A DNA stretch of 64,000 nt from Rhodothermales bacterium (GCA_022825385.1 JAJDWX010000038.1:79717-143716), one strand, 5' to 3'; positions 2,105 through 15,061 are shown, counted from the stretch's first letter. Made by a program: numbers and translations. The notes: generated by a model not told the origin, from the letters alone.

Positions 2105-2171
2105 CGTACCCATGCGCCTGTCCTGGAATGAAATACGCGCCCGCGCGGCGGAATTCGCCCGCGAATGGGAA
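2105..2171 (+). repeat. Direct repeat copy B (start-codon region of the intact MmeI-family gene)
   Basis: Partner of 387-453; see that feature. Confidence 0.9.
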
Positions 2172-4904
2172 GGTGCCGGGTACGAAAAGGGCGAAACGCA
2201 AAGTTTTTACGACAGTTTCTTCCGCATTTTCGGGGTCGAGCGGCGCAGCGTGGCTCGATACGAGGAGAACGTGAAAAAACTGGGGGATTCCAGCGGCTTC
2301 ATCGACCTTTTCTGGCCGGGCGTCCTGATTGTCGAGCAAAAAAGCGTCGGGCGGAATCTTGCCAAAGCGAAAAAACAGGCGGGCGAATATTTCGATGCGC
2401 TTCCCGAGCGGGATCGACCGCGCTATATTCTGGTCAGCGACTTCCAGACGTTCAAACTCCGCGATCTGGACGAGCGGGAAGAGGCCTCCTTTACGCTCGA
2501 AGCCCTGCCCGACCATGTGGAGAAGTTCGGCTTCATCCTCGGCGTACAGAAGCGTTCGTTCAAGGATCAGGACCCCGTCAACATCAAGGCCGCCGAGCTC
2601 GTGGGCAAACTCCACGACGCGCTCGAAGCCTCTGGCTACAAGGGGCACGATCTGGAGCGGTTCCTGGTCCGCATCGTGTTCTGCCTCTTCGCGGACGATA
2701 CGGGCATCTTCGAGCCCCGGGATATTTTTCTTGACCTGCTGGAAAACCGTGCGCGGGAAGACGGTTCGGACCTCGGCGGATGGCTCGCGCAACTCTTCCA
2801 GGTACTCGACACGCCGGAAGACGAACGCCCGAACAATCTTGACGAGGACCTTGCCCGCTTTCCCTATGTGAACGGGGCCCTTTTCGACGGGCCGCTCCGC
2901 ATTCCCTCTTTCGACGCCTCCATGCGGGAGCGCCTGCTCGACGCCTGCCGCTTCGACTGGTCGAATATCTCTCCGGCTATTTTCGGCTCCCTGTTTCAGT
3001 CTGTCATGGACAAGGACGAGCGGCGAAAGCAGGGCGCCCACTACACCACCGAGAAGAACATTCTCAAGGTTATCGAGCCGCTTTTCCTGGACGATCTTCG
3101 GGCGGAGTTTGCCCGGCTCAAGGCCCGCAAGGACAGCCGCCGCCTGCCGGAATTGCTCGCCTTCCAGCAGCGGCTCGGACGGTTGCGTTTCCTGGATCCT
3201 GCCTGCGGCTGCGGCAACTTCCTCATTATCGCCTACCGGGAGCTCCGCGAACTGGAAATCGAGGTACTGAAAGAAACCCGGCCCCGCAGGCAGGTCGATG
3301 TGCTGGCCAGTCTGCTTTCGGTGGTGAACGTCGATCAGTTCTACGGGATCGAACTGGGAGAATTTCCGGCCCGCATCGCGGAGGTGGCCCTGTGGATGAT
3401 GGATCACATCATGAACAACCGCCTCAGCCTGGAATTTGGGGAGACATACGTGCGCATTCCGCTGGAGACCTCGCCGCATATCGTGCATGGGGACGCGCTG
3501 GAGATGGATTGGGCCGACGCATTGCCCCCGGAAGATTGTTCGTACGTGCTCGGCAATCCGCCGTTCGGGGGGTTTGTCATGCGCATCCGGGAAAAGCAAA
3601 TACAGGCCAAGGCACTCATGGAAAGACTTGGAGCGTCAGGGTCGAGACTTGATTATGTCGCAGCATGGTTTCTCAAAGCGGGCGAATATTTTCGCGGAAA
3701 GCGCGCCCGGATCGGCTTTGTCGCCACCAATTCCATTACGCAGGGCGAGCAGGTTGCTCAGTTGTGGCCTGCTTTATTCGATCGCTACAACCTGGAAATC
3801 GCTTTTGTTCACCGCACGTTCGCCTGGGGCTCGGACGCGCGGGGCGTGGCGCATGTGCATGTGGTGATTATCGGGTTATCCGACCGGAAATCCATATCCG
3901 GCGGACGACGGTTATTCACATACCAGACACTGACAGAGGCCCCGCACGAGATTCAAGTGTCGGCCATCAGCCCATACCTGATTGACGGCGGTCACTTGAC
4001 GAATCCGCATCTTGTAATAAAAAGACAACGTGTGTCTATTAGCCATTTTCCAAAGATCGGCGTTGGGACGAAGCCCGTGGATGGCGGACATTACATTTTC
4101 CAGGAAAAGGAAAAAGCGGACTTCGTTGCACTGGAGCCTCAAGCCGCCGAGCTGCTGAGACCATTTGTCGGAGGCGCCGAATACATCAACGACAGAGCGC
4201 GCTGGATTCTTCACGTATCCGGTCAATCGCCAGCGCTCCTGCGTTCGTTGCCGAATGTCATGGACAGAATCCATACGGTCAGGCGTTATCGAACAGAGCA
4301 AGCCGGTCGATTGGGGCAGTCGCTCGCAGATCGCCCCACCGAGTATCACGTTTCCGTCATTCCGGAAACTTCATTCTTGGTTATCCCCGAAGTCAGTTCG
4401 GAACGCCGCCAGTATATCCCCATTGGCTGGTTGAACCCTCCCGCCATCCCGAGCAATCAATTGCTGGTCGTGGAAAATGCACGGCTTTGGCAATTCGCGC
4501 TGTTAACCTCTGCTATACACATGGCTTGGTTAAGATATATTGGCGGACGACTGAAAAGCGATTATCGCTATTCGAGTGGCCTCGTCTACAACACCTTCCC
4601 CGTACCGCCCGGCTTCCATACGGGTAGCCCGAGCGTCGCCAAACTGGAACCGCTTGCGCAGGCCGTGCTCGACGCCCGCGCCGCCCATCCCGACTCTTCT
4701 CTGGCCGATCTCTACGACCCAGACCTCATGCCGCCCAATCTCCGCAAGGCGCACCAAGCCCTCGACCGCGCCGTGGACCGGCTGTATCGCCGCAGCGGCT
4801 TCGCCAGCGAACGGGAGCGGGTGGAATATCTGCTGGGATTGTACGAGAAGATGATGGAGCCGCTGGTGGCGAAGGGGAAAATGAAACGGCGGCGAGGAAA
4901 ATGA
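2112..4904 (+). CDS. Type IIL (MmeI-family) restriction-modification enzyme: nuclease, N6-adenine methyltransferase and specificity domains in one chain
   Basis: 930 aa. N-terminal PD-ExK-like FIDLFWPGVLIVEQKS. SAM motif I FLDPACGCGNFL. Catalytic motif IV VLGNPPFGG. Size and N-terminus (RAAEFAREWEG...ETQSFYDSFF) match the MmeI family as I recall it. Confidence 0.85.
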   Translation: MRLSWNEIRARAAEFAREWEGAGYEKGETQSFYDSFFRIFGVERRSVARYEENVKKLGDSSGFIDLFWPGVLIVEQKSVGRNLAKAKKQAGEYFDALPERDRPRYILVSDFQTFKLRDLDEREEASFTLEALPDHVEKFGFILGVQKRSFKDQDPVNIKAAELVGKLHDALEASGYKGHDLERFLVRIVFCLFADDTGIFEPRDIFLDLLENRAREDGSDLGGWLAQLFQVLDTPEDERPNNLDEDLARFPYVNGALFDGPLRIPSFDASMRERLLDACRFDWSNISPAIFGSLFQSVMDKDERRKQGAHYTTEKNILKVIEPLFLDDLRAEFARLKARKDSRRLPELLAFQQRLGRLRFLDPACGCGNFLIIAYRELRELEIEVLKETRPRRQVDVLASLLSVVNVDQFYGIELGEFPARIAEVALWMMDHIMNNRLSLEFGETYVRIPLETSPHIVHGDALEMDWADALPPEDCSYVLGNPPFGGFVMRIREKQIQAKALMERLGASGSRLDYVAAWFLKAGEYFRGKRARIGFVATNSITQGEQVAQLWPALFDRYNLEIAFVHRTFAWGSDARGVAHVHVVIIGLSDRKSISGGRRLFTYQTLTEAPHEIQVSAISPYLIDGGHLTNPHLVIKRQRVSISHFPKIGVGTKPVDGGHYIFQEKEKADFVALEPQAAELLRPFVGGAEYINDRARWILHVSGQSPALLRSLPNVMDRIHTVRRYRTEQAGRLGQSLADRPTEYHVSVIPETSFLVIPEVSSERRQYIPIGWLNPPAIPSNQLLVVENARLWQFALLTSAIHMAWLRYIGGRLKSDYRYSSGLVYNTFPVPPGFHTGSPSVAKLEPLAQAVLDARAAHPDSSLADLYDPDLMPPNLRKAHQALDRAVDRLYRRSGFASERERVEYLLGLYEKMMEPLVAKGKMKRRRGK

Positions 4905-4976
4905 TCTCTGGCTAGCCCCATGGATGCAATTATCAGTAAAGCATAGGATTTCTTGAGAAAACTCGGCACTCGACAC

Positions 4977-6347
4977 ATGAGCAATAAAAATCCCCTTTTT
5001 TATATTCTCGCCGACGCGGTCGAATCAGAGTTGCAACCGCAGCGAATGATTGATCTACCCAATCTTTGCGATGCACTTGGTCTTCCCAATCCTCTGTATG
5101 AGTCAGGAACAAAGCGTGAGTATATCCGAAGCCGACTCGCCCCCCTTCGTCAAATGCCGGACGAAACTCAACCGGTCGCCCGGGAATTCACGAAACGCTA
5201 TCCTGTGGCCGAAGGAAATAGGGATACGTTCAAAATTGAAGAATTTCTCTGGAAAAATGAAAACTATCCGACCATCACGAAAAAACTTCGGCGAGAACTT
5301 GCTCAGGGATTTGAACAAGAATTTTTGCATTGCGATACCAACGAAATTCTTGCCGCCTTAGAAAAACTTTGGGTACTTCAAGATGAGTTGTATTCATGGA
5401 CCCCTGAAAATTCTCTCTATTTTCAATTCCAAGAATACTTCACCAATAATCCTCAAGGCTGGTCTGTTGAAAAATTTTTCCAGCAGCTCGGTGCTCTTGA
5501 ATGTTCCGACCTCCGATTCGGAAAGTTGATAGAAGCTCTGGTTGGCCCAGAGGTGCGCCCCAATGAGCAAAACCAACGGTCATTTGTTGCGGCAGCGAAC
5601 CGAGTGCTTCGCCTTCATGGTCTCGAACTTGTTGAGACAGGCGAGCAAGATGGATATCCAGCATTCTCTTTGCAGCAGACTGGAATCGGGGCTACTGGCC
5701 GCCCAAAAAATCTAATCTTTGCGTCACAAGTAAAGCCTGATCTTCGTTTTCGGGATGCAGTAAACAACGACATTGAAATCGTCACTGGAGCAGATAAAGT
5801 CTTAATATATGACTACCCTACTCCAACTGAAGGACTGCGTTGGCGTCATCTTCAAGCTTGGTGGGCAAAGTCCAAGGGACATGCGGATGAAGAAAAGGCT
5901 AAAAAGACACTCTACCGTCGCCTTCTGTCATCGCTACCGAAGAATTCGCCTCCCCAGAAACTTCTTTTCGAGACCTTCTTCAAGCACTTTGGCAAAGATA
6001 TACCAGATCTGCCTGCATTACTCCCCGAGGTGTGGCTGCACTACGATCCTCAAACGGTCAAACAGCGTGGTCGAGATGCGCTTTTGCGTCAGCGTATGGA
6101 TTTTTTGATACTGATTTCACACGGAACCAGAATCGTGTTGGAAGTTGATGGTGCTCGCCACTATTCGGATGATAATGGAAAGCCTTCACCTATTCGTTAC
6201 GCAGAAATGGTTGCGGCTGATCGAGAACTCAAACTACACGGATACGATGTGTACCGATTTGGTGGTAGTGAGCTTCAAGGCGTTGATGGAAAACAACTCC
6301 TAAAAACATTCTTTGACCATCTATTCGAAAAGCATAGAGTTCGTTAG
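4977..6347 (+). CDS. Hypothetical protein with a C-terminal DUF559/Vsr-like PD-(D/E)XK endonuclease domain; N-terminal ~370 aa unassigned
   Basis: ORF 4953..6347 starts at TTG; the first ATG is 4977 (MSNKNPLFYIL). The C-terminus RQRMDFLILISHGTRIVLEVDGARHY...AADRELKLHGYDVYRFGGSEL fits the DUF559 pattern (DF...E-x-DG-x-x-H...D-x-x-R...G-x-x-V-x-RF). A sampled line is about 40% G+C, much lower than the flanks. Confidence 0.65.
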   Translation: MSNKNPLFYILADAVESELQPQRMIDLPNLCDALGLPNPLYESGTKREYIRSRLAPLRQMPDETQPVAREFTKRYPVAEGNRDTFKIEEFLWKNENYPTITKKLRRELAQGFEQEFLHCDTNEILAALEKLWVLQDELYSWTPENSLYFQFQEYFTNNPQGWSVEKFFQQLGALECSDLRFGKLIEALVGPEVRPNEQNQRSFVAAANRVLRLHGLELVETGEQDGYPAFSLQQTGIGATGRPKNLIFASQVKPDLRFRDAVNNDIEIVTGADKVLIYDYPTPTEGLRWRHLQAWWAKSKGHADEEKAKKTLYRRLLSSLPKNSPPQKLLFETFFKHFGKDIPDLPALLPEVWLHYDPQTVKQRGRDALLRQRMDFLILISHGTRIVLEVDGARHYSDDNGKPSPIRYAEMVAADRELKLHGYDVYRFGGSELQGVDGKQLLKTFFDHLFEKHRVR

Positions 6348-6424: not shown

Positions 6425-7909
6425 ATGCCTCCCCGCAAGCAACATCCCTACAAAGACAGCGGGCAACCGATCCTCATGTGGTTTCGGCGCGACCTGCGGC
6501 TGACGGACAATCCCGCGCTGTCCTGGGCAATCCGAACCGGTCGGCCCGTCATCCCCGTTTTTATCCTGGATGAAGGTTCCGAAAGCCGTCCCTCGGGGGG
6601 CGCGTCCCGCTGGTGGCTACACGGCAGCCTCCACGCCCTGCACGGCGACCTGAAGAAACTGGGCAGCCGCCTCACTCTGCGCCGAGGCGCTTCCGGGGAA
6701 ACCATCGCCGCCCTGGCGCAGGAAACCGGCGCATCGACGATCGTATGGAACCGGCTTTACGATCCTAAAATCGTTCGGCGGGACGCGGAAATCCGGGCGC
6801 AGTGCGAAGCGGCGGGCGTCGGGATACGATCTTTCAATGCCGCGCTGCTCTTCGAACCCTGGACCATTCAAACAGGGAGCGGTTCGCCCTACCGGGTCTT
6901 CACGCCGTTCTGGCGGCGGTGCCTCGAACAGGGATTTGCGGTCCCCGAGACTGAAAAACCCGCCCCGGTTCCCCCCGCTTGCTGGCCAGCGACCGAAGCG
7001 CTTGATACATGGAACCTGCGATGTCATAATCCAGACTGGGCGGCAGGTTTTCGGAAGGCGTGGCGACCCGGAGAAGAAGGCGCCCGGGGGCGGCTCGCAG
7101 ATTTTCTGCGTAACGGCGCCGAAAAATACGCGACGAACCGGGACGCGCCGGGCAAACAAGGCACAAGCAGGCTGTCCCCCCATCTGCATTTCGGGGAAAT
7201 CGGGCCGCGCCAGATCGTTGCCGCGCTTGGCGGAATCGAGCCGGGGGCGGACAAGGACGCCTTCCTGCGGGAGATTGGCTGGCGGGAGTTCTGCCATCAT
7301 CTACTGTTCCACAACCCGAAGATGGAGCGAGTCAATATACGGCGCGAGTTCGACCGCATGCCCTGGCGGAACGACCCGGACGGCTTGCGGCGCTGGCAGC
7401 GCGGCCAGACCGGATATCCGCTGGTGGACGCAGGGATGCGCGAACTATGGACTACCGGCTGGATGCACAACCGGGTCCGCATGATCGCGGCGTCGTTTCT
7501 GACGAAGCATCTGCTGATCGACTGGCGGCATGGGGCGGACTGGTTCCTGGATACGCTGGTCGATGCGGATTTGGCCAACAACAGCGCCGGTTGGCAATGG
7601 ACCGCCGGGTGCGGCGCGGACGCAGCCCCGTACTTCCGCATATTCAATCCCGTCGCGCAATCACGGCGCTTCGACGCCGCCGGGGAATACCTGCGGACAT
7701 GGATCCCGGAACTCCGGCGACTGCCGGGCAAAGCAATTCATGCTCCGTGGCAAGCGCCGCCATCCGTTCTGGACAAGGCCGGAGTCCGACTCGGCGAAAA
7801 CTACCCCTGTCCCATCGTCGACCACGCCGAAGCCCGGAGGCGGGCGCTGGGTATCTATCGGAGGCGTATTCGGGGGATAGGGAAGGGAAGTCGAAACAGC
7901 TGCCAGTAA
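6425..7909 (+). CDS. phrB: Deoxyribodipyrimidine photolyase (class I CPD photolyase / cryptochrome family)
   Basis: MWFRRDLRLTDNPAL; TSRLSPHLHFGEI; GWREF; DADLANNSAGWQWTAGCGADAAPYFRIFNP. Confidence 0.9.
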   Translation: MPPRKQHPYKDSGQPILMWFRRDLRLTDNPALSWAIRTGRPVIPVFILDEGSESRPSGGASRWWLHGSLHALHGDLKKLGSRLTLRRGASGETIAALAQETGASTIVWNRLYDPKIVRRDAEIRAQCEAAGVGIRSFNAALLFEPWTIQTGSGSPYRVFTPFWRRCLEQGFAVPETEKPAPVPPACWPATEALDTWNLRCHNPDWAAGFRKAWRPGEEGARGRLADFLRNGAEKYATNRDAPGKQGTSRLSPHLHFGEIGPRQIVAALGGIEPGADKDAFLREIGWREFCHHLLFHNPKMERVNIRREFDRMPWRNDPDGLRRWQRGQTGYPLVDAGMRELWTTGWMHNRVRMIAASFLTKHLLIDWRHGADWFLDTLVDADLANNSAGWQWTAGCGADAAPYFRIFNPVAQSRRFDAAGEYLRTWIPELRRLPGKAIHAPWQAPPSVLDKAGVRLGENYPCPIVDHAEARRRALGIYRRRIRGIGKGSRNSCQ

Positions 7910-7964
7910 ACATGTACAGAGAATAGAGGCATACATTATTGATTACACGATTTTTTTGGACACA

Positions 7965-8616
7965 TCACATTCCAAGCCCTTCAAGTTGTTCCAGCCAAGC
8001 ATTAAAATGAGGACATATGGAGCGGATATTATCAAGACCGATCAAGGCGGCCATCTGCGGTCCTATGGTCGATTTCAGGTATTGATAGTCAGGAAATTGT
8101 TCAATAATTCTTTTCGATGGCGCGGTATGTTGGCCGTCGTTAATCAATTCTGGACATGTAGTCTTTCGTAAAGCCTTTTGCAAGATAGGTATTTTCTTTT
8201 TTGTCTCATCAAAAAATTGATCTAATAATGACAATTTCACAAATAAATAAGCCTCAAATTCATGCAATTGAATGAATGGAATAAAACGATCATCTTTTGT
8301 TTTTTCAAACCATGCCTTTTCAAGATTTTTTACACGTTCATAAGGAACATGACGTAATTTGTCAAATTCAGACAATTTGGGAAAATTTGGATGCAGGGCG
8401 TAAAGATCAATCATTGTAGTAAAAAACACATTGGCATTCGAATCTTCCTTAAGAGAACGTTCTATATCGTTCTGCATTGCTATGAAATTTTTTCCGCCTC
8501 CGCGATGAGTTTTTCCTTTTTTTCGGGCGTGGGCAATCAGGCGCGGTCGATTCATGTATACGCCGAATTGAGCCAGATGCGGTTTCAAGACCGTATCGGC
8601 GAATGTTTGCTCTGTT
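7965..8616 (-). pseudogene. DUF4276-family protein, 3' part (codons ~14-227) cut off from its 5' end by the cassette insertion
   Basis: ORF 7965..8588 begins at an internal TTG. The same frame upstream reads ...FSV*VPTEQTFADTVLKPHL, with stops inside the left TIR. Joining it to 10416-10455 rebuilds MARLYLFAEGQTEQTFADTVLKPHLAQFGVY..., a DUF4276-like N-terminus (EG-x-TE...PHL, from memory). Confidence 0.75.
8609..8616. repeat. Target-site duplication, left copy (GCTCTGTT)
   Basis: Identical 8-mer at 10416-10423. Each copy directly abuts a terminal inverted repeat. Confidence 0.85.
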
Positions 8617-8664
8617 GGGACTTATACGGAAAACTACCCAAAACATTCCTAAACCCCTATAAAA
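8617..8664. repeat. Left terminal inverted repeat (core 8617-8644; gapped similarity to ~8664)
   Basis: See the mobile_element entry. The extension shares CCCTATAAAA with the right end. Confidence 0.75.
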
Positions 8665-8713
8665 CAAAGACTTAAGAAAAGCATCCCCGTAAATCTTGAC
8701 TTTCCTATATCCG

Positions 8714-10297
8714 TTATTTTCCAACTACTGGATGCGCTTGCTTCGCCCTCTCGTCGTCAAGGAAACTACCCCAGGCTTTCCGACCTTTCCGGCTATTGCA
8801 GTTTCCGCAAAGCCCGATACGATTCAGTATATCGTCCGATCCTCCCCTTGACTTTGGAATAACGTGGTCCAAGTGTAAATCCACGTGCCTTGCTACGTGC
8901 TTTAAGGTGCAATAAGGATTACCACAAAGCTGGCCTTGTTTCTTCCATAATAACAATCTCATTTTATCAGCAGATATGTATTCAATATCTGTTCTCCTAG
9001 GTGAAGTTTTTTGTACTGTTACATATTCTAACCCTACGTGTTGATCCAGTCCAGATGTCTCCTGAAGTCGTTCGTTTGTCACGGTTTCCGCTTCAGGATC
9101 AATGTCAATGCCTATCCAGTTTCGCCGTTGCCTTTCGGCAGCTACACAGGTTGTAGCGCATCCACAGAATGGGTCAAGTACCAGATCGCCTTCGTTGCTG
9201 GATATTTTTATTATCCGTTCATAAAGTCCAACGGGTTTCTGAGTTTTCCATTCGGTTCTGACCAAAGAACGTGGTGGTAGCCATTTAACTTCTTCTTCAA
9301 TACCCTTTTTACTGCCGTACACAGTGCCTTCCGTATAGGGTTGATAAGCCCAAATATCATTTAAGACAACTCCATCTCTTTCATCCAGATAACGAACCAT
9401 AGTAGGCCAAGCATTACCTGGTTTTATTTCTATGAATCCCTTCTGGTACAGAGCTTCAAGTTTTTGAATAGGGGATAGTTGTAAATAAGCAGTATCCATA
9501 AACTGATTATAGTGCTTGGGAATGGCCCAGTGTCTGTCCTTTGGTTTGGGATCAAAGCCCCTCCAAGATTCGCACGATGGGCCGTCGGTTGCTCCTTGGC
9601 CCGTAAGGATGTTTCCACCCACAGTATAACGATAACGTTCGCCTTCCTTTTCATAATGCTCCTCTACGTGGCCCTTCATATACGGCTTCCGAACGATATT
9701 AAATGTGTATTTTTTGTTATGTTTATAGTAATAAAATATCGTATCGTGTTCGTTTCCTAACGACCTTGTACAATTTTTCGGAAGCTTACGCCAAATAATT
9801 TCAGAACCGAAATTATTTCTTCCAAATATAGCATCCAGTAATAAGCGAAGATAAGCGTTGGCCTCCCTATTGCAATGTAAATAAAGACTTCCGGTCGGTT
9901 TCAATATCCGGTGCATTTCTATCAAGCGTGGAGCCATCCACGCAAGAAACGCTGCTACGCTGTTTTTAGTTTTTCCAGTATCAATCTTTCCTGTATGCTT
10001 TTCAATGCTTCCGCTCTCAATGACTACAGCGGCTTCAATTAATTCCTTGATGGCTGGATGATCAGTAGCAATAAGATCGTGCCATTCATTAGTAACTTCA
10101 TCCCACTTCCAACGGTCGTCAAACTGTTGATTAGCCGCCTTACTTCCCATAGGCGCATTGTAAAGTCGCTTCGTATTAAACGGGGGATCTGTGGCTATCA
10201 GGTCAATGGATTCCGAGTTGATGCCTCGCATAACCCTCAGGTTGTCGCAGATGTACAGGGTACGGTTCTTGACGTTCGGTTCAGGGAGGGAGGGCAT
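8714..10297 (-). CDS. Beta-class N6/N4 DNA methyltransferase fused to a C-terminal HNH endonuclease domain
   Basis: 527 aa. Motif IV IATDPPFNT lies near the N-terminus and SAM motif I VLDPFCGCATT lies late, which is the beta-class order. C-terminal HNH: CGNPYC...HLDHVIPKSRGGSDDILNRIGLCGNCNSRKG. Confidence 0.85.
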   Translation of the reverse strand: MPSLPEPNVKNRTLYICDNLRVMRGINSESIDLIATDPPFNTKRLYNAPMGSKAANQQFDDRWKWDEVTNEWHDLIATDHPAIKELIEAAVVIESGSIEKHTGKIDTGKTKNSVAAFLAWMAPRLIEMHRILKPTGSLYLHCNREANAYLRLLLDAIFGRNNFGSEIIWRKLPKNCTRSLGNEHDTIFYYYKHNKKYTFNIVRKPYMKGHVEEHYEKEGERYRYTVGGNILTGQGATDGPSCESWRGFDPKPKDRHWAIPKHYNQFMDTAYLQLSPIQKLEALYQKGFIEIKPGNAWPTMVRYLDERDGVVLNDIWAYQPYTEGTVYGSKKGIEEEVKWLPPRSLVRTEWKTQKPVGLYERIIKISSNEGDLVLDPFCGCATTCVAAERQRRNWIGIDIDPEAETVTNERLQETSGLDQHVGLEYVTVQKTSPRRTDIEYISADKMRLLLWKKQGQLCGNPYCTLKHVARHVDLHLDHVIPKSRGGSDDILNRIGLCGNCNSRKGRKAWGSFLDDERAKQAHPVVGK

Positions 10298-10367
10298 TGT
10301 ATCGGTAGGGCTTTACGTGAAGGGGGTCAGAGAATATACGGTATTTTTTGGAAAGGTTATATCCGTT

Positions 10368-10415
10368 ATTTTTTATAGGGAAGATGGGGTTTGGATAGTT
10401 TTCCGTATAATTCCC
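10368..10415. repeat. Right terminal inverted repeat (core 10389-10415)
   Basis: Reverse complement matches the left TIR; see the mobile_element entry. Confidence 0.75.
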
Positions 10416-10423
10416 GCTCTGTT
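10416..10423. repeat. Target-site duplication, right copy (GCTCTGTT)
   Basis: Identical to 8609-8616 and abuts the right TIR. Confidence 0.85.
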
Positions 10424-10455
10424 TGTCCTTCTGCAAAGAGATAAAGCCGTGCCAT
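10416..10455 (-). pseudogene. DUF4276-family protein, 5' fragment (first 13 codons, MARLYLFAEGQTE)
   Basis: ATG at 10455-10453 shares its A with the ATPase stop TGA at 10457-10455 (TGATG). As it stands the frame runs into the TIR and stops after 29 codons (MARLYLFAEGQTERELYGKLSKPHLPYKK*, to 10366). Confidence 0.7.
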
Positions 10456-11555
10456 CAGTGGGGTCCTCCTCCAATAATATTCTTTTCCCAGATTTCGCCA
10501 AGCGAATAATCCTCCAGCCAGGCCTTCAATTTTTCGGCTTCTAATCTACAAAATTCAGTGGTTTTACCATTTCGTTCTACTGTCACTATATCTTCAGGTT
10601 CGAAATAGTCTACAAACGTACTGGATTGTGTACTGACGAGCACCTGCCTATAACGACTTGCCGCCTGAAACAACGATGCGACTACATTAAGCGCATAGGG
10701 ATGCAGACCAAGTTCCGGTTCGTCCACTACGATCACATAAGGGAGTTTTTCAACAGGTTGCAAAAGCAATGAAATTAAACAAATGGCTCGCAGTGTTCCG
10801 TCCGAAAGCTGATGGGGGCCAAATATTAGATCAGAAGATCGGTGCCGCCAGTTCAAAATAATATCTCTGGATTCAGTTTTTTCAAGAGAAAAATCTTCAA
10901 AAAAAGGTGCCACCTGTCGAATTGTTTGTACGATTCTATTATACCTCATTTCATTAGACGATTTAAGCTCATAAAGTACGGCTGCAAGATTTGCAGCATC
11001 AGGCATGAGCCATCGATTATCTTCAACATAGCAATATTGTCGAATTCTGGCCGTGGAAGATGTATCGTGAAAATGATATACGCGACATCTATTAAGCAAA
11101 TGATGTAATGCCTTTGCAGTTTCATTTTTTGACTCAACTGCCTCGACAATGCGTGTTTCTTGATGACCTGATTCAAGCGAAATTTCTTTGGGTTTTTCAT
11201 AACCTTCTTGATGATAAAATAGTTTCTCTTCAGCAAAAATCATAGAATCTCCAGCAGCATGAAAGAGCCTCATTTTATAGGTATTGGTACCGTTTTTTAC
11301 TTCAAACTGTATTTCCGCTTCAATTTGCGGAGTTATTTTGGGGCCAAAATGTAAATTAGCTGTTGCACGGCCTGTTGATCCAATATATTGCTGAAACCGC
11401 CCTCCCATCAATTCATTGATTAATTTAAAAAAAGCAATAAGATTACTTTTACCTGCTCCATTAGCTCCAATCAAAACATTCAGAGACCGAAATGTTAACC
11501 GAGTTTCCTGAATGGATCGAAAGCCCTTGATTGTAATGTAATTCAGTTTCGCCAT
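10455..11555 (-). CDS. ABC-type (AAA_15/AAA_21-like) ATPase, partner of the DUF4276 gene
   Basis: The ORF 10455..11570 start is TTG; ATG at 11555 gives MAKLNYITIKGFRSI. Walker A LIGANGAGKSN. ABC-signature-like LSDGTLR. Walker B/D-loop VIVVDEPELGLHP. H-loop-like VSTQSS. Confidence 0.85.
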   Translation of the reverse strand: MAKLNYITIKGFRSIQETRLTFRSLNVLIGANGAGKSNLIAFFKLINELMGGRFQQYIGSTGRATANLHFGPKITPQIEAEIQFEVKNGTNTYKMRLFHAAGDSMIFAEEKLFYHQEGYEKPKEISLESGHQETRIVEAVESKNETAKALHHLLNRCRVYHFHDTSSTARIRQYCYVEDNRWLMPDAANLAAVLYELKSSNEMRYNRIVQTIRQVAPFFEDFSLEKTESRDIILNWRHRSSDLIFGPHQLSDGTLRAICLISLLLQPVEKLPYVIVVDEPELGLHPYALNVVASLFQAASRYRQVLVSTQSSTFVDYFEPEDIVTVERNGKTTEFCRLEAEKLKAWLEDYSLGEIWEKNIIGGGPH

Positions 11556-13594: not shown

Positions 13595-15061
13595 ATGACC
13601 ACCCACCATTCCAGCGACTACCTGACCGATCTGGTGAGCGAATTGTGCAATTTGTCCAGCGAGACCGAGTGGGTGGAGTTCAAGGAAAATAATGCAGATC
13701 CGGAAACTATCGGCAAAAACATCTCTGCATTGGCTAATTCAGCAGCGCTGGAGGGCAAGGCGTTCGCGTATATCGTTTGGGGTATTCGGGACCAGGACCA
13801 TGCGGTGGTTGGCACAACCTTTACTCCGCGTCGGGAACGTCGCGGCAATGAAGAATTGGAAAACTGGTTACTGCGCCTTCTCGAACCAAGGATTGATTTC
13901 CGATTCTTTAACGCCACGATAGACGCCAAACCCGTCGTTCTTCTTGAAATCGCAAGGCCTACGGGCCAGCCTGTGAGTTTTTCCGGTGTAAAATATATCC
14001 GTGTGGGCAGTTACACGAAAAATCTGAAGAGTTTTTCTGAAAAAGAACGGGCGCTATGGCGCATCTTCGACCAAACCCCCTTTGAAGACGGCATCGCCGC
14101 TGAGCGCCGGCGGGACGAGGATGTCTTGAAATTACTTGATTATCCAGCCTACTTCGATTTGCTGGAAGCGCCGCTTCCGGAGAATCGAGACGCTATTTTG
14201 TCTGTTCTGGCTAACGATAACATTATTCGCCGATCCGAAGCAAGCGGCTGGGACGTTACCAACCTCGGGGCTTTGCTTCTTGCCAGGCGGCTAGCTGATT
14301 TTGGACGTCTGGGGCGTAAAGCGGTCCGCGTGATACAGTATAAAGGCGCCGGGCGCATCGAAGCCATGAAAGAACGGGAAGAAGCAAAAGGATATGCGTG
14401 TGGCTTTAATGGATTGATTAGCTACATCAGCGGCATGCTGCCCTCCAATGAAGTAATCGATCAGGCTTTGCGGGTGACGGTACCCATGTTCCCTGAGGTG
14501 GCTGTGCGAGAATTACTGGCGAATGCGCTCATTCATCAGGATTTTTCGATTACTGGCGCGGGGCCGATGTTCGAGATTTTCGATGATCGGCTCGAAATCA
14601 CCAATCCCGGCGAACCCCTTGTAGCCACAGAACGCTTCGTGGATACGCCGCCGAAATCGCGCAACGAGGCCCTGGCTTCGCTCATGCGGCGGTTTGGCAT
14701 TTGCGAGGAGCGCGGCAGCGGGGTGGACAGAGTTGTGACGGAAATAGAGATTTTCCAGCTTCCGGCGCCGCTTTTCGAAGCGCCGGAGGGATTTACGCGC
14801 GCTGTTCTTTTTGCACATAAACCTCTGGCCAAAATGGACAAGGCGGATCGCATGCGAGCTTGTTATCTGCACGCTTGCCTGAAGTACGTTATGCGCGATT
14901 TCCTTACCAATGCTTCCTTACGAAAGCGTTTCGGCGTGGAAGACGGGAATAAATCAATTGTATCCCGCTATATCAAGGAGGCGGTAGAGGAAAATTTAAT
15001 CAAGCCATATGCCCCCGGCGCGTCGCGCAGAATGATGCGATATGTCCCCCACTGGGCCTGA
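13595..15061 (+). CDS. AlbA_2 + HATPase_c_4 protein, second paralog
   Basis: SETEWVEFKENNADPETIGKNISALANSAALEG is AlbA_2-like. ELLANALIHQDF...LEITNPG is the HATPase_c_4 motif. Same architecture as 549..1895. Confidence 0.8.
   Translation: MTTHHSSDYLTDLVSELCNLSSETEWVEFKENNADPETIGKNISALANSAALEGKAFAYIVWGIRDQDHAVVGTTFTPRRERRGNEELENWLLRLLEPRIDFRFFNATIDAKPVVLLEIARPTGQPVSFSGVKYIRVGSYTKNLKSFSEKERALWRIFDQTPFEDGIAAERRRDEDVLKLLDYPAYFDLLEAPLPENRDAILSVLANDNIIRRSEASGWDVTNLGALLLARRLADFGRLGRKAVRVIQYKGAGRIEAMKEREEAKGYACGFNGLISYISGMLPSNEVIDQALRVTVPMFPEVAVRELLANALIHQDFSITGAGPMFEIFDDRLEITNPGEPLVATERFVDTPPKSRNEALASLMRRFGICEERGSGVDRVVTEIEIFQLPAPLFEAPEGFTRAVLFAHKPLAKMDKADRMRACYLHACLKYVMRDFLTNASLRKRFGVEDGNKSIVSRYIKEAVEENLIKPYAPGASRRMMRYVPHWA

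Follow-up and report, generated by a model that had tools for sequence, protein, structure and literature searches.

The region analyzed here lies at positions 7965-11555, on the minus strand, of a 64,000-nucleotide (nt) stretch of DNA from a Rhodothermales bacterium (GCA_022825385.1 JAJDWX010000038.1:79717-143716); this whole stretch is referred to as the window. The region contains a pair of genes, coding for an ABC-type ATPase and a DUF4276 protein, and an inserted element of 1,799 base pairs (bp) that splits the second gene. The two genes have the following features:

11555..10455, minus strand: ABC-type ATPase gene, intact, by model matches of the HEC-01A type; ATG at 11555, stop codon TGA at 10457-10455, 366 amino acids (aa) plus stop.
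11468-11442, minus strand: Walker A motif GANGAGKSN, residues 30-38; GANGxGKSN is at least 95% conserved in 66 ATPases of the family.
10808-10788, minus strand: ABC signature-like motif LSDGTLR, residues 250-256; SDGTLR is at least 95% conserved in the same 66 ATPases.
10730-10698, minus strand: Walker B motif and D-loop VVDEPELGLHP, residues 276-286; DEPExGLHP is at least 95% conserved in the 66 ATPases.
10626-10634, minus strand: TQS, ATPase residues 309-311; T, Q and S are each at least 95% conserved in the 66 family members.
10464..10472, minus strand: Shine-Dalgarno-like GGAGGAGGA, as read from the sequence, 8 nt upstream of the DUF4276 ATG and within the 3' end of the ATPase gene.
10457-10453, minus strand: TGATG, in which the ATPase stop codon TGA (10457-10455) and the DUF4276 start codon ATG (10455-10453) share base 10455.
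10416..10455, minus strand: 5' fragment of the DUF4276 gene, codons 1-13 (MARLYLFAEGQTE) and the first base of codon 14.
7965..8608, minus strand: 3' fragment of the DUF4276 gene, from the rest of codon 14 to codon 227 and the stop codon (7967-7965), in frame and 1.8 kb downstream.

With its Walker A motif, its signature-like motif and its Walker B motif with D-loop, the first protein has the motif set of an ABC ATPase of the AAA_15/AAA_21 group. It matches the Pfam family AAA_21 over the entire profile (positions 1-304 of 304, E 3.4e-25) and AAA_15 with an E-value of 5.4e-17, while its N-terminus also matches the SMC_N and RecF models. The one-base overlap couples the ATPase gene to the DUF4276 gene, and the Shine-Dalgarno-like GGAGGAGGA probably serves this coupled translation. 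The 5' fragment of the DUF4276 gene holds E9, G10 and E13 of the EGxTE motif; past codon 13, the reading frame enters unrelated sequence of the element and reaches a stop 16 codons on. The 3' fragment has neither an internal stop nor a frameshift. When the two fragments are joined (10455-10416 to 8608-7965), the rebuilt gene encodes 227 aa, and this protein matches Pfam DUF4276 (PF14103) over the full profile (positions 1-192 of 192, E 3.8e-51, 174.5 bits; gathering cut-off 30.2 bits). Among the NCBIfam models, none matches the DUF4276 protein.

The sequence that separates the two fragments has the anatomy of a mobile element:

8617..10415, minus strand: inserted element of 1,799 bp without a transposase, recognized by its inverted repeats and target-site duplication and by its absence from the sister strains L001-L004.
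10390..10415, unstranded: terminal inverted repeat, arm beside the DUF4276 5' fragment, 26 nt, 92% complementary.
8617..8642, unstranded: terminal inverted repeat, arm beside the DUF4276 3' fragment, 26 nt, 92% complementary.
10416..10423, unstranded: target-site duplication, copy 1, GCTCTGTT (as read on the plus strand), 8-bp direct repeat.
8609..8616, unstranded: target-site duplication, copy 2, GCTCTGTT, 8-bp direct repeat.
8714..10297, minus strand: cargo gene for an N6/N4 DNA methyltransferase fused to a C-terminal HNH nuclease, 527 aa, the sole long open reading frame (ORF) of the element.

The 21-nt core of the inverted repeat occurs at only two sites in the window and in 0 of 100 shuffled sequences. 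The sister strains, four metagenome contigs with about 96% nucleotide identity to the window over shared genes, carry the empty site: blastn alignments to L001-L004 break exactly at 10416 and 8616, with the 8 bp counted twice, and they code for a 366-aa ATPase and a 227-aa DUF4276 protein, both intact; to the latter, the rebuilt protein is 97% identical. An earlier note on this DNA had proposed an ancestral two-gene operon of this kind, with its DUF4276 gene inactivated, and had named the ATPase motifs, the TGATG overlap at 10457-10453 and the insertion after codon 13, all of which we find as described there. The rebuilt gene, the intact sister copies and the conserved position of the ATPase gene in relatives (see below) bear out the operon; the split by the 1,799-bp element, together with the empty site in the sisters, bears out the inactivation.

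The event appears to be recent. The ATPase of the window is 99.7% identical to that of sister strain L002 at the amino acid level, with 13 synonymous codon differences and 1 non-synonymous codon difference. For the DUF4276 fragments, there are 13 synonymous and 7 non-synonymous differences to L002, and the corresponding numbers for two intact sister alleles are 7 and 6; thus, we found no specific signal of relaxed selection in the fragments compared to the intact sister alleles. Because the fragments show no sign of decay, we infer that the insertion occurred recently.

Judged by its matches to sequence models, the pair is a member of the candidate system HEC-01, which is already catalogued in PADLOC. 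The ATPase matches the HEC-01A model PDLC04175 with an E-value of 1.1e-144 (residues 2-365 of 366, profile positions 4-362 of 363), and the models for PDC-M07A, AbiLi, mad3, AriA, Old and GajA fall short of the weakest among the top HEC-01A matches by at least 15 orders of magnitude. Once the insertion is removed, and only then, the second gene matches HEC-01B (PDLC04188, E 1.6e-70, residues 1-225), and the rebuilt protein matches no PADLOC models other than those for HEC-01B. HEC-01, for Hma-embedded candidate 01, was defined as an ABC ATPase together with a TOPRIM protein found within Hma systems (Payne et al., bioRxiv 10.1101/2024.01.29.577857). For detection by PADLOC, this embedding is the route of discovery and no requirement. 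The pair is therefore not uncharacterized in the sense of the earlier note, and the statement that it has no demonstrated function also needs revision: HEC-01 has been tested against phages twice, with one negative and one positive outcome, and the related genes mad3 and mad4 are each needed for defence by the MADS system. In the positive report, a cold-seep metagenome study, one cloned HEC-01 is listed as one of four candidates with protection of E. coli B from T7, T5 or T4, or more than one of these phages; its representative differs from the one that gave no protection.

The association of the two genes is strongly conserved. A pattern scan with one genome per species yielded 80 loci that encode relatives of the DUF4276 protein, mostly with 55-70% identity, and spanning Latescibacterota, Binatia, Bryobacterales, Planctomycetota, Spirochaetia, Nitrospirota, cyanobacteria and others. 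In 78 of these 80 loci, the ATPase gene immediately precedes the DUF4276 gene, and both remaining loci hold DUF4276 remnants with a truncated N-terminus; hence, the co-occurrence that had been proposed as a check on the pairing is strong. Both genes are full length in 65 loci, and 57 of these intact pairs keep the one-base overlap of stop and start codon. Truncated or internally deleted copies account for about a dozen of the 80 loci. At one locus, in a Syntrophobacterales bin (L048:2171-2344), the DUF4276 gene has been interrupted independently, at about codon 23; the insert measures about 174 bp, has inverted ends of 26 nt and shows no relation to the element in the window. The family as a whole is large: a DUF4276 profile search of 1.84 billion representatives gave 4,075 clusters (50% identity) at E <= 0.001.

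The suggestion that DUF4276 belongs with TOPRIM domains is one that the literature already makes (PMC12065111; bioRxiv 10.1101/2024.01.29.577857; PMC11464382). In the study of Menshen, DUF4276 and RloB are named as new members of the TOPRIM superfamily, and Mad4 of MADS is identified as a DUF4276 homologue (PMC12065111); HEC-01B is described as structurally similar to TOPRIM proteins, with a metal-binding site in common with Bp OLD (Payne et al., bioRxiv 10.1101/2024.01.29.577857). Our AlphaFold2 model of an intact sister DUF4276 protein (predicted local distance difference test score (pLDDT) 84.5; predicted template modelling score 0.84) has a core of alternating strands and helices (strands 2-8, 30-32, 74-81 and ~122-127), followed by a helical C-terminal half. 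E9 lies right after strand 1, D81 ends strand 3, and E130 and E132 follow strand 4. In 127 diverse representatives with 35-62% identity, E9, D81 and E130 are invariant and G10, E13 and E132 nearly so. TOPRIM domains have a conserved Glu where strand 1 ends, and here E9 takes this place. The invariant E9, D81 and E130 together with the nearly invariant E132 are candidate metal ligands.

Based on these data, we think it probable that the region is a recently inactivated HEC-01-type module in which the ATPase was the sensor or regulator and the DUF4276 protein a metal-dependent TOPRIM-type nuclease effector, later split by the element. The AAA_15/AAA_21 ATPase and the DUF4276 protein are encoded in one operon and coupled through the one-base overlap of stop and start codon. 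In our model, which follows the example of PARIS, OLD/Gabija and AbiL, the ATPase would act as both sensor and regulator, holding or otherwise controlling its small partner. Upon sensing of a phage cue, the DUF4276 protein would act as a metal-dependent nuclease of the TOPRIM type and cut nucleic acid, thereby halting the infection or the infected cell. The 1.8-kb transposase-less methyltransferase-HNH element transposed into codon 14. As the insertion parts the EGxTE glutamates, with the invariant E9, from the remainder of the protein, the effector would be dead; the ATPase gene is still intact. For the copy in the window, we infer nuclease activity, this division of labour and an anti-phage role from the related systems.

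Several observations weigh against this interpretation. ATPase residues 309-311, which we take to be the expected site of the H-loop Thr-His-Ser, have Gln in place of His, and from this substitution ATP hydrolysis may be slow or regulatory. In the DUF4276 protein, the canonical TOPRIM motif DxD is D-L-Y, with an invariant D81 and Tyr83 at the second acidic position, although E130 and E132 may supply the missing acidic ligands in the model. At the Foldseek significance threshold of E <= 0.001, the full model had no match to any structure, nuclease and TOPRIM structures included, in PDB or BFVD (best match T5 FEN with E 6.6e-3; GajA with E 0.11-0.17), the best match of a model of residues 1-145 (pLDDT 65.9) in PDB had an E-value of 0.27, and DUF4276 profiles gave only chance matches to PDB sequences (galectin, aspartate semialdehyde dehydrogenase). 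In hhalign comparisons with the C-terminus of P2 Old, the deeper alignment A5 returned only a 12-residue match, iivEGqTEe to VLLVEGKTE, with a probability of 1.7%, and the shallow alignment A2 returned nothing; VLLVEGKTE is the start of the OLD-like TOPRIM domain of P2 Old (residues 389-455). A profile of the OLD TOPRIM domain could not be built, as a homologue search with the P2 Old C-terminus gave 3 proteins. A Pfam scan of 54 members of the DUF4276 family at E <= 10 found no Toprim, RloB or DUF4435, and returned a recurrent, meaningless match to Sigma70_ECF. The order of strands and helices, the invariant acidic residues and the non-significant EGxTE match to P2 Old fit TOPRIM, but the Foldseek searches did not reproduce a nuclease-like fold; our own tests are consistent with the TOPRIM assignment without establishing it, and the assignment rests on the published structural comparisons. 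The evidence on protection by HEC-01 is mixed as well: the only controlled test, E. coli assays with a broad phage panel, showed none (bioRxiv 10.1101/2024.01.29.577857), and the cold-seep report gives neither a fold-reduction for HEC-01 nor mutant controls. Moreover, the majority of neighbourhoods in other genomes consist of ordinary housekeeping genes, e.g. for ABC transporters and amidohydrolases. Finally, the copy in the window is broken and hence not working now.

The genes that surround the intact pairs bear both on this reading and on its alternatives. Clustering of 486 neighbouring ORFs from the 65 loci in search of an obligate third gene gave no family present in more than 9 loci. The largest family, in 9 of the 65, is type IIG restriction-methylase-like and lies at most 25 nt downstream of the pair or overlaps it. 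The immediate downstream neighbours (n=62) include 8 type IIG and 2 type III enzymes, and single ones match HmaC, GajB, a DRT reverse transcriptase-helicase, Hhe or TmtA, along with several PDC candidates; the upstream neighbours (n=63) include 3 type III methylases and 2 DrmD/HmaA-like helicases. At one locus (L033:2378-13965), the order is DrmD-like SNF2 helicase, type III Mod, pair and type III Res, with gaps of 12 nt between the pair and each of mod and res; at another (L035), the pair lies between HmaB and HmaC. The expectation that DUF4276 genes sit in defence contexts is therefore supported in part: roughly a third of the immediate downstream neighbours match defence models, and many others are transporters or amidohydrolases.

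An arrangement of this kind would also be expected if the pair served methylation-based systems (type III, type IIG, Hma, MADS) as an accessory or guard, acting only with such a partner and not as a stand-alone defence, a reading that we regard as unlikely but worth keeping in mind. The same modest weight goes to its more detailed version, in which the pair would sense phage anti-restriction factors, as PARIS senses Ocr, or the failure of the neighbouring system, and would then free the DUF4276 nuclease. Such a role would explain why pairs are inserted between mod and res or, elsewhere, between HmaB and HmaC, why a cloned pair gave no phenotype on its own, and why it decays readily by insertion when the partner context changes. 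It draws on these two embedded loci, on the 8 loci with a type IIG enzyme at most 25 nt after the pair or overlapping it, on the MmeI-type enzyme 3 kb from the pair in the window, on the membership of the related Mad3 and Mad4 in a methylation-associated system and on the failure of HEC-01 alone to protect in one study. However, at most of the 65 intact loci the immediate neighbours include no restriction or methylase gene, no partner family is conserved across the loci, and one HEC-01 that was cloned alone was reported to be protective. The patchy spread over many phyla with 60-75% identity, which suggests horizontal transfer, and the location of the window pair in a low-GC island have been counted for yet another alternative, namely a selfish module, of an addiction or toxin-antitoxin-like kind, by which the pair stabilizes its island, with the nuclease as toxin, the ATPase as its restraint and no anti-phage role. 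The Pfam description of AAA_21 names the AbiEii toxin, a component of a type IV toxin-antitoxin system, and the truncation or degradation of about a dozen of 80 copies, including the independent insertions here and in L048, fits a costly or toxic gene. Nevertheless, loss of the nuclease with retention of the ATPase is equally expected of a costly defence gene, the pairs located inside restriction and Hma operons as well as the reported protection point to defence, and no stabilization phenotype has been reported; we consider this alternative improbable, and more so than a guard function.

A DNA repair module resembling RecF/RecR, i.e. an SMC-like ABC ATPase acting with a TOPRIM protein, is the alternative to which we give the least credence. 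The ATPase N-terminus matches the SMC_N and RecF models, RecR also carries a TOPRIM domain, and a photolyase gene lies 56 bp from the pair. Yet the RecF match covers only the Walker A region (residues 5-40) and scores 30 bits compared to a cut-off of 172 bits, the photolyase is a neighbour only in this lineage and is separated from the pair by another gene in the sisters, and the sporadic distribution is unlike that of the core genome. Based on the distribution and the RecF score, we rejected this reading as highly improbable.

For the inactivated HEC-01-type module that we favour, the locus in the window adds one inactivated example to a large known family and offers no special entry point to it. 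Nevertheless, since the mechanism and even the phenotype of HEC-01 are unsettled in the literature, the family is still worth experiments, and several features described here can be used in its study: the conserved one-base overlap, the residues E9, D81, E130 and E132 as targets for mutation, the conserved TQS, the natural intact and disrupted alleles in sister strains, and the pairs that are placed between the mod and res genes in type III systems.

In the window, the pair lies in a low-GC island, with a GC content of 35-46% compared to 55-65% in the genome, and is flanked by genes for a photolyase (6425-7909, 56 bp from the DUF4276 gene) and an M48 peptidase; an MmeI-type IIG enzyme, an AbiJ_NTD3 protein and two SLFN_AlbA_2 proteins are encoded within 8 kb. 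Its context is thus partly, though not uniformly, defence-like. The PADLOC scan of these surroundings covered four large neighbouring ORFs, and the photolyase and M48 peptidase lay outside it; among the neighbours scanned or read (photolyase, M48 peptidase, SLFN_AlbA_2, AbiJ_NTD3, MmeI), we found no Hma embedding of the pair. The intergenic spot between the DUF4276 gene and the photolyase gene is a variable hotspot. Only in the sister strains is the pair followed by a DUF1828 gene (PADLOC candidate PDC-M24B), which lies between the DUF4276 and photolyase genes and which the window lacks (window 7886-7938; L002:3997-4770; L001:10753-11205), and L001 has an additional, second AAA_21-type ATPase gene downstream.

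Further from the pair, the MmeI-type IIG restriction-methylase gene (2112-4904, about 3 kb away) is full length. Its part at 3571-4526 takes in the last section of the methylase domain and the greater part of the target recognition domain; blastn does not match this part to the sister strain, whereas the sequence on either side is 88-97% identical, which suggests a swap of the specificity domain between strains. The AbiJ_NTD3 domain is in a 464-aa ORF (4953-6347) without a PADLOC match, located where the GC content is lower (45-49%); this ORF is not in the sister L002, which has only about 660 bp at that place. The two SLFN_AlbA_2 proteins (528-1895 and 13595-15061, i.e. 6-7 kb upstream and 2 kb downstream of the pair) are paralogous, both also contain HATPase_c_4, and one has a winged-helix domain; the protein at 528-1895 has weak PADLOC matches to Argonaute-associated N-terminal domains.

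As for the inserted element, its cargo matches the Pfam families N6_N4_Mtase (3.8e-44) and HNH (2.6e-09) as well as the MTase_II models of PADLOC, and homologues with the same methyltransferase-HNH fusion number in the thousands. Together, the 8-bp duplication and the inverted ends suggest that the element was moved by a DDE transposase acting in trans. An 8-bp target duplication is typical of IS1595, and the element resembles IS1595-family elements with passenger genes in having terminal inverted repeats and such a duplication, but differs from them in that it encodes no DDE_Tnp_IS1595 transposase; a tblastn search with the transposase from locus L085 detected no IS1595-type transposase in the element or elsewhere in the window. 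At that locus (L085:1125-2540), a DDE_Tnp_IS1595 transposase gene is followed downstream by a 61-aa ORF and then by the closest non-identical homologue of the cargo, a methyltransferase-HNH gene with 68% identity. About 220 bp upstream of the transposase is an end-like sequence (GGGATACGGAAACTTGGCAAA; GGGATACGGAAAC) that resembles the terminal repeat of the element in the window. The other, right end of this relative lies beyond the contig. Because of this invisible right end and because no transposase is present in the window, our assignment of the element to the IS1595 family is tentative. For the 21-nt repeat core, neither the metagenome collection nor the fetched loci contained an exact match, and no comparable inverted repeats were found at more distant cargo homologues.

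The origin of the cargo may be separate from that of its carrier. Copies of the cargo ORF with 92-97% nucleotide identity are present in other contigs (L090:82-1635; L091:153-1711) without inverted ends, and their homology ends at the stop codon. In addition, the element contains two identical direct copies of a 15-bp sequence (AAAATAACGGATATA, read in the direction of the gene), at 10358-10372, 61 nt before the cargo start, and at 8706-8720, across its stop. Based on these observations, the cargo ORF looks like a cassette that was captured by a small carrier with inverted ends.

Several characterized or catalogued systems combine an ABC ATPase with a TOPRIM protein or domain, and the earlier analogy with OLD, PARIS and AbiL holds, with the kinship to OLD and PARIS already in print. 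The closest relation is to HEC-01 itself: both window proteins match HEC-01A and HEC-01B end to end, with A before B, adjacent and on one strand, and some relatives are Hma-embedded, as at L035. By contrast, the copy in the window lies outside Hma, and with its B gene split it is not intact as a system. Mad3-Mad4 of MADS likewise consists of an AAA_15/21 ABC ATPase and a DUF4276-type partner; MADS3-4 is listed among ABC ATPase and TOPRIM systems (PMC11464382), deletion of mad3 or mad4 lowers MADS defence (bioRxiv 10.1101/2023.03.30.534895), and the window ATPase matches the PADLOC mad3 model with an E-value of 3.1e-25. However, this ATPase scores 103.4 bits on the NCBIfam MAD3 model compared to an equivalog cut-off of 420 bits, the DUF4276 protein matches HEC-01B models only, and the window pair stands alone as two genes. 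Except for a secondary mad2 match on the MmeI enzyme, no mad genes, including the mandatory mad6-8, were found in the four large neighbouring ORFs scanned with PADLOC.

OLD nucleases and GajA of Gabija also unite an ABC ATPase with TOPRIM, EGxTE resembles LVEGKTE of P2 Old, and the ATPase weakly matches the OLD-family structure 6p74. In these proteins, the two domains are in one polypeptide, whereas here there are two ORFs, each with its own stop and start, and sequence similarity is marginal beyond the P-loop and Walker B regions. AbiL, with the ATPase AbiLi and its partner AbiLii/RloB, is similar in pairing an ATPase with a small TOPRIM-like partner, often at restriction loci, and the AbiLi model matches with an E-value of 7.6e-26; it differs in that the partner in the window has no RloB match. 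In PARIS, as in the window, an AAA_15/21 ATPase (AriA) and a separate small TOPRIM-type effector (AriB) are encoded by two genes. The AriA models match with an E-value of 4.7e-23, far below HEC-01A, and the partner is a DUF4276 and not a DUF4435 protein. In PARIS, the ATPase forms a scaffold that frees the nuclease upon sensing a phage protein (PMC11464382). By analogy, PARIS would therefore be the best mechanistic template for the pair of an ATPase and a DUF4276 protein described here.

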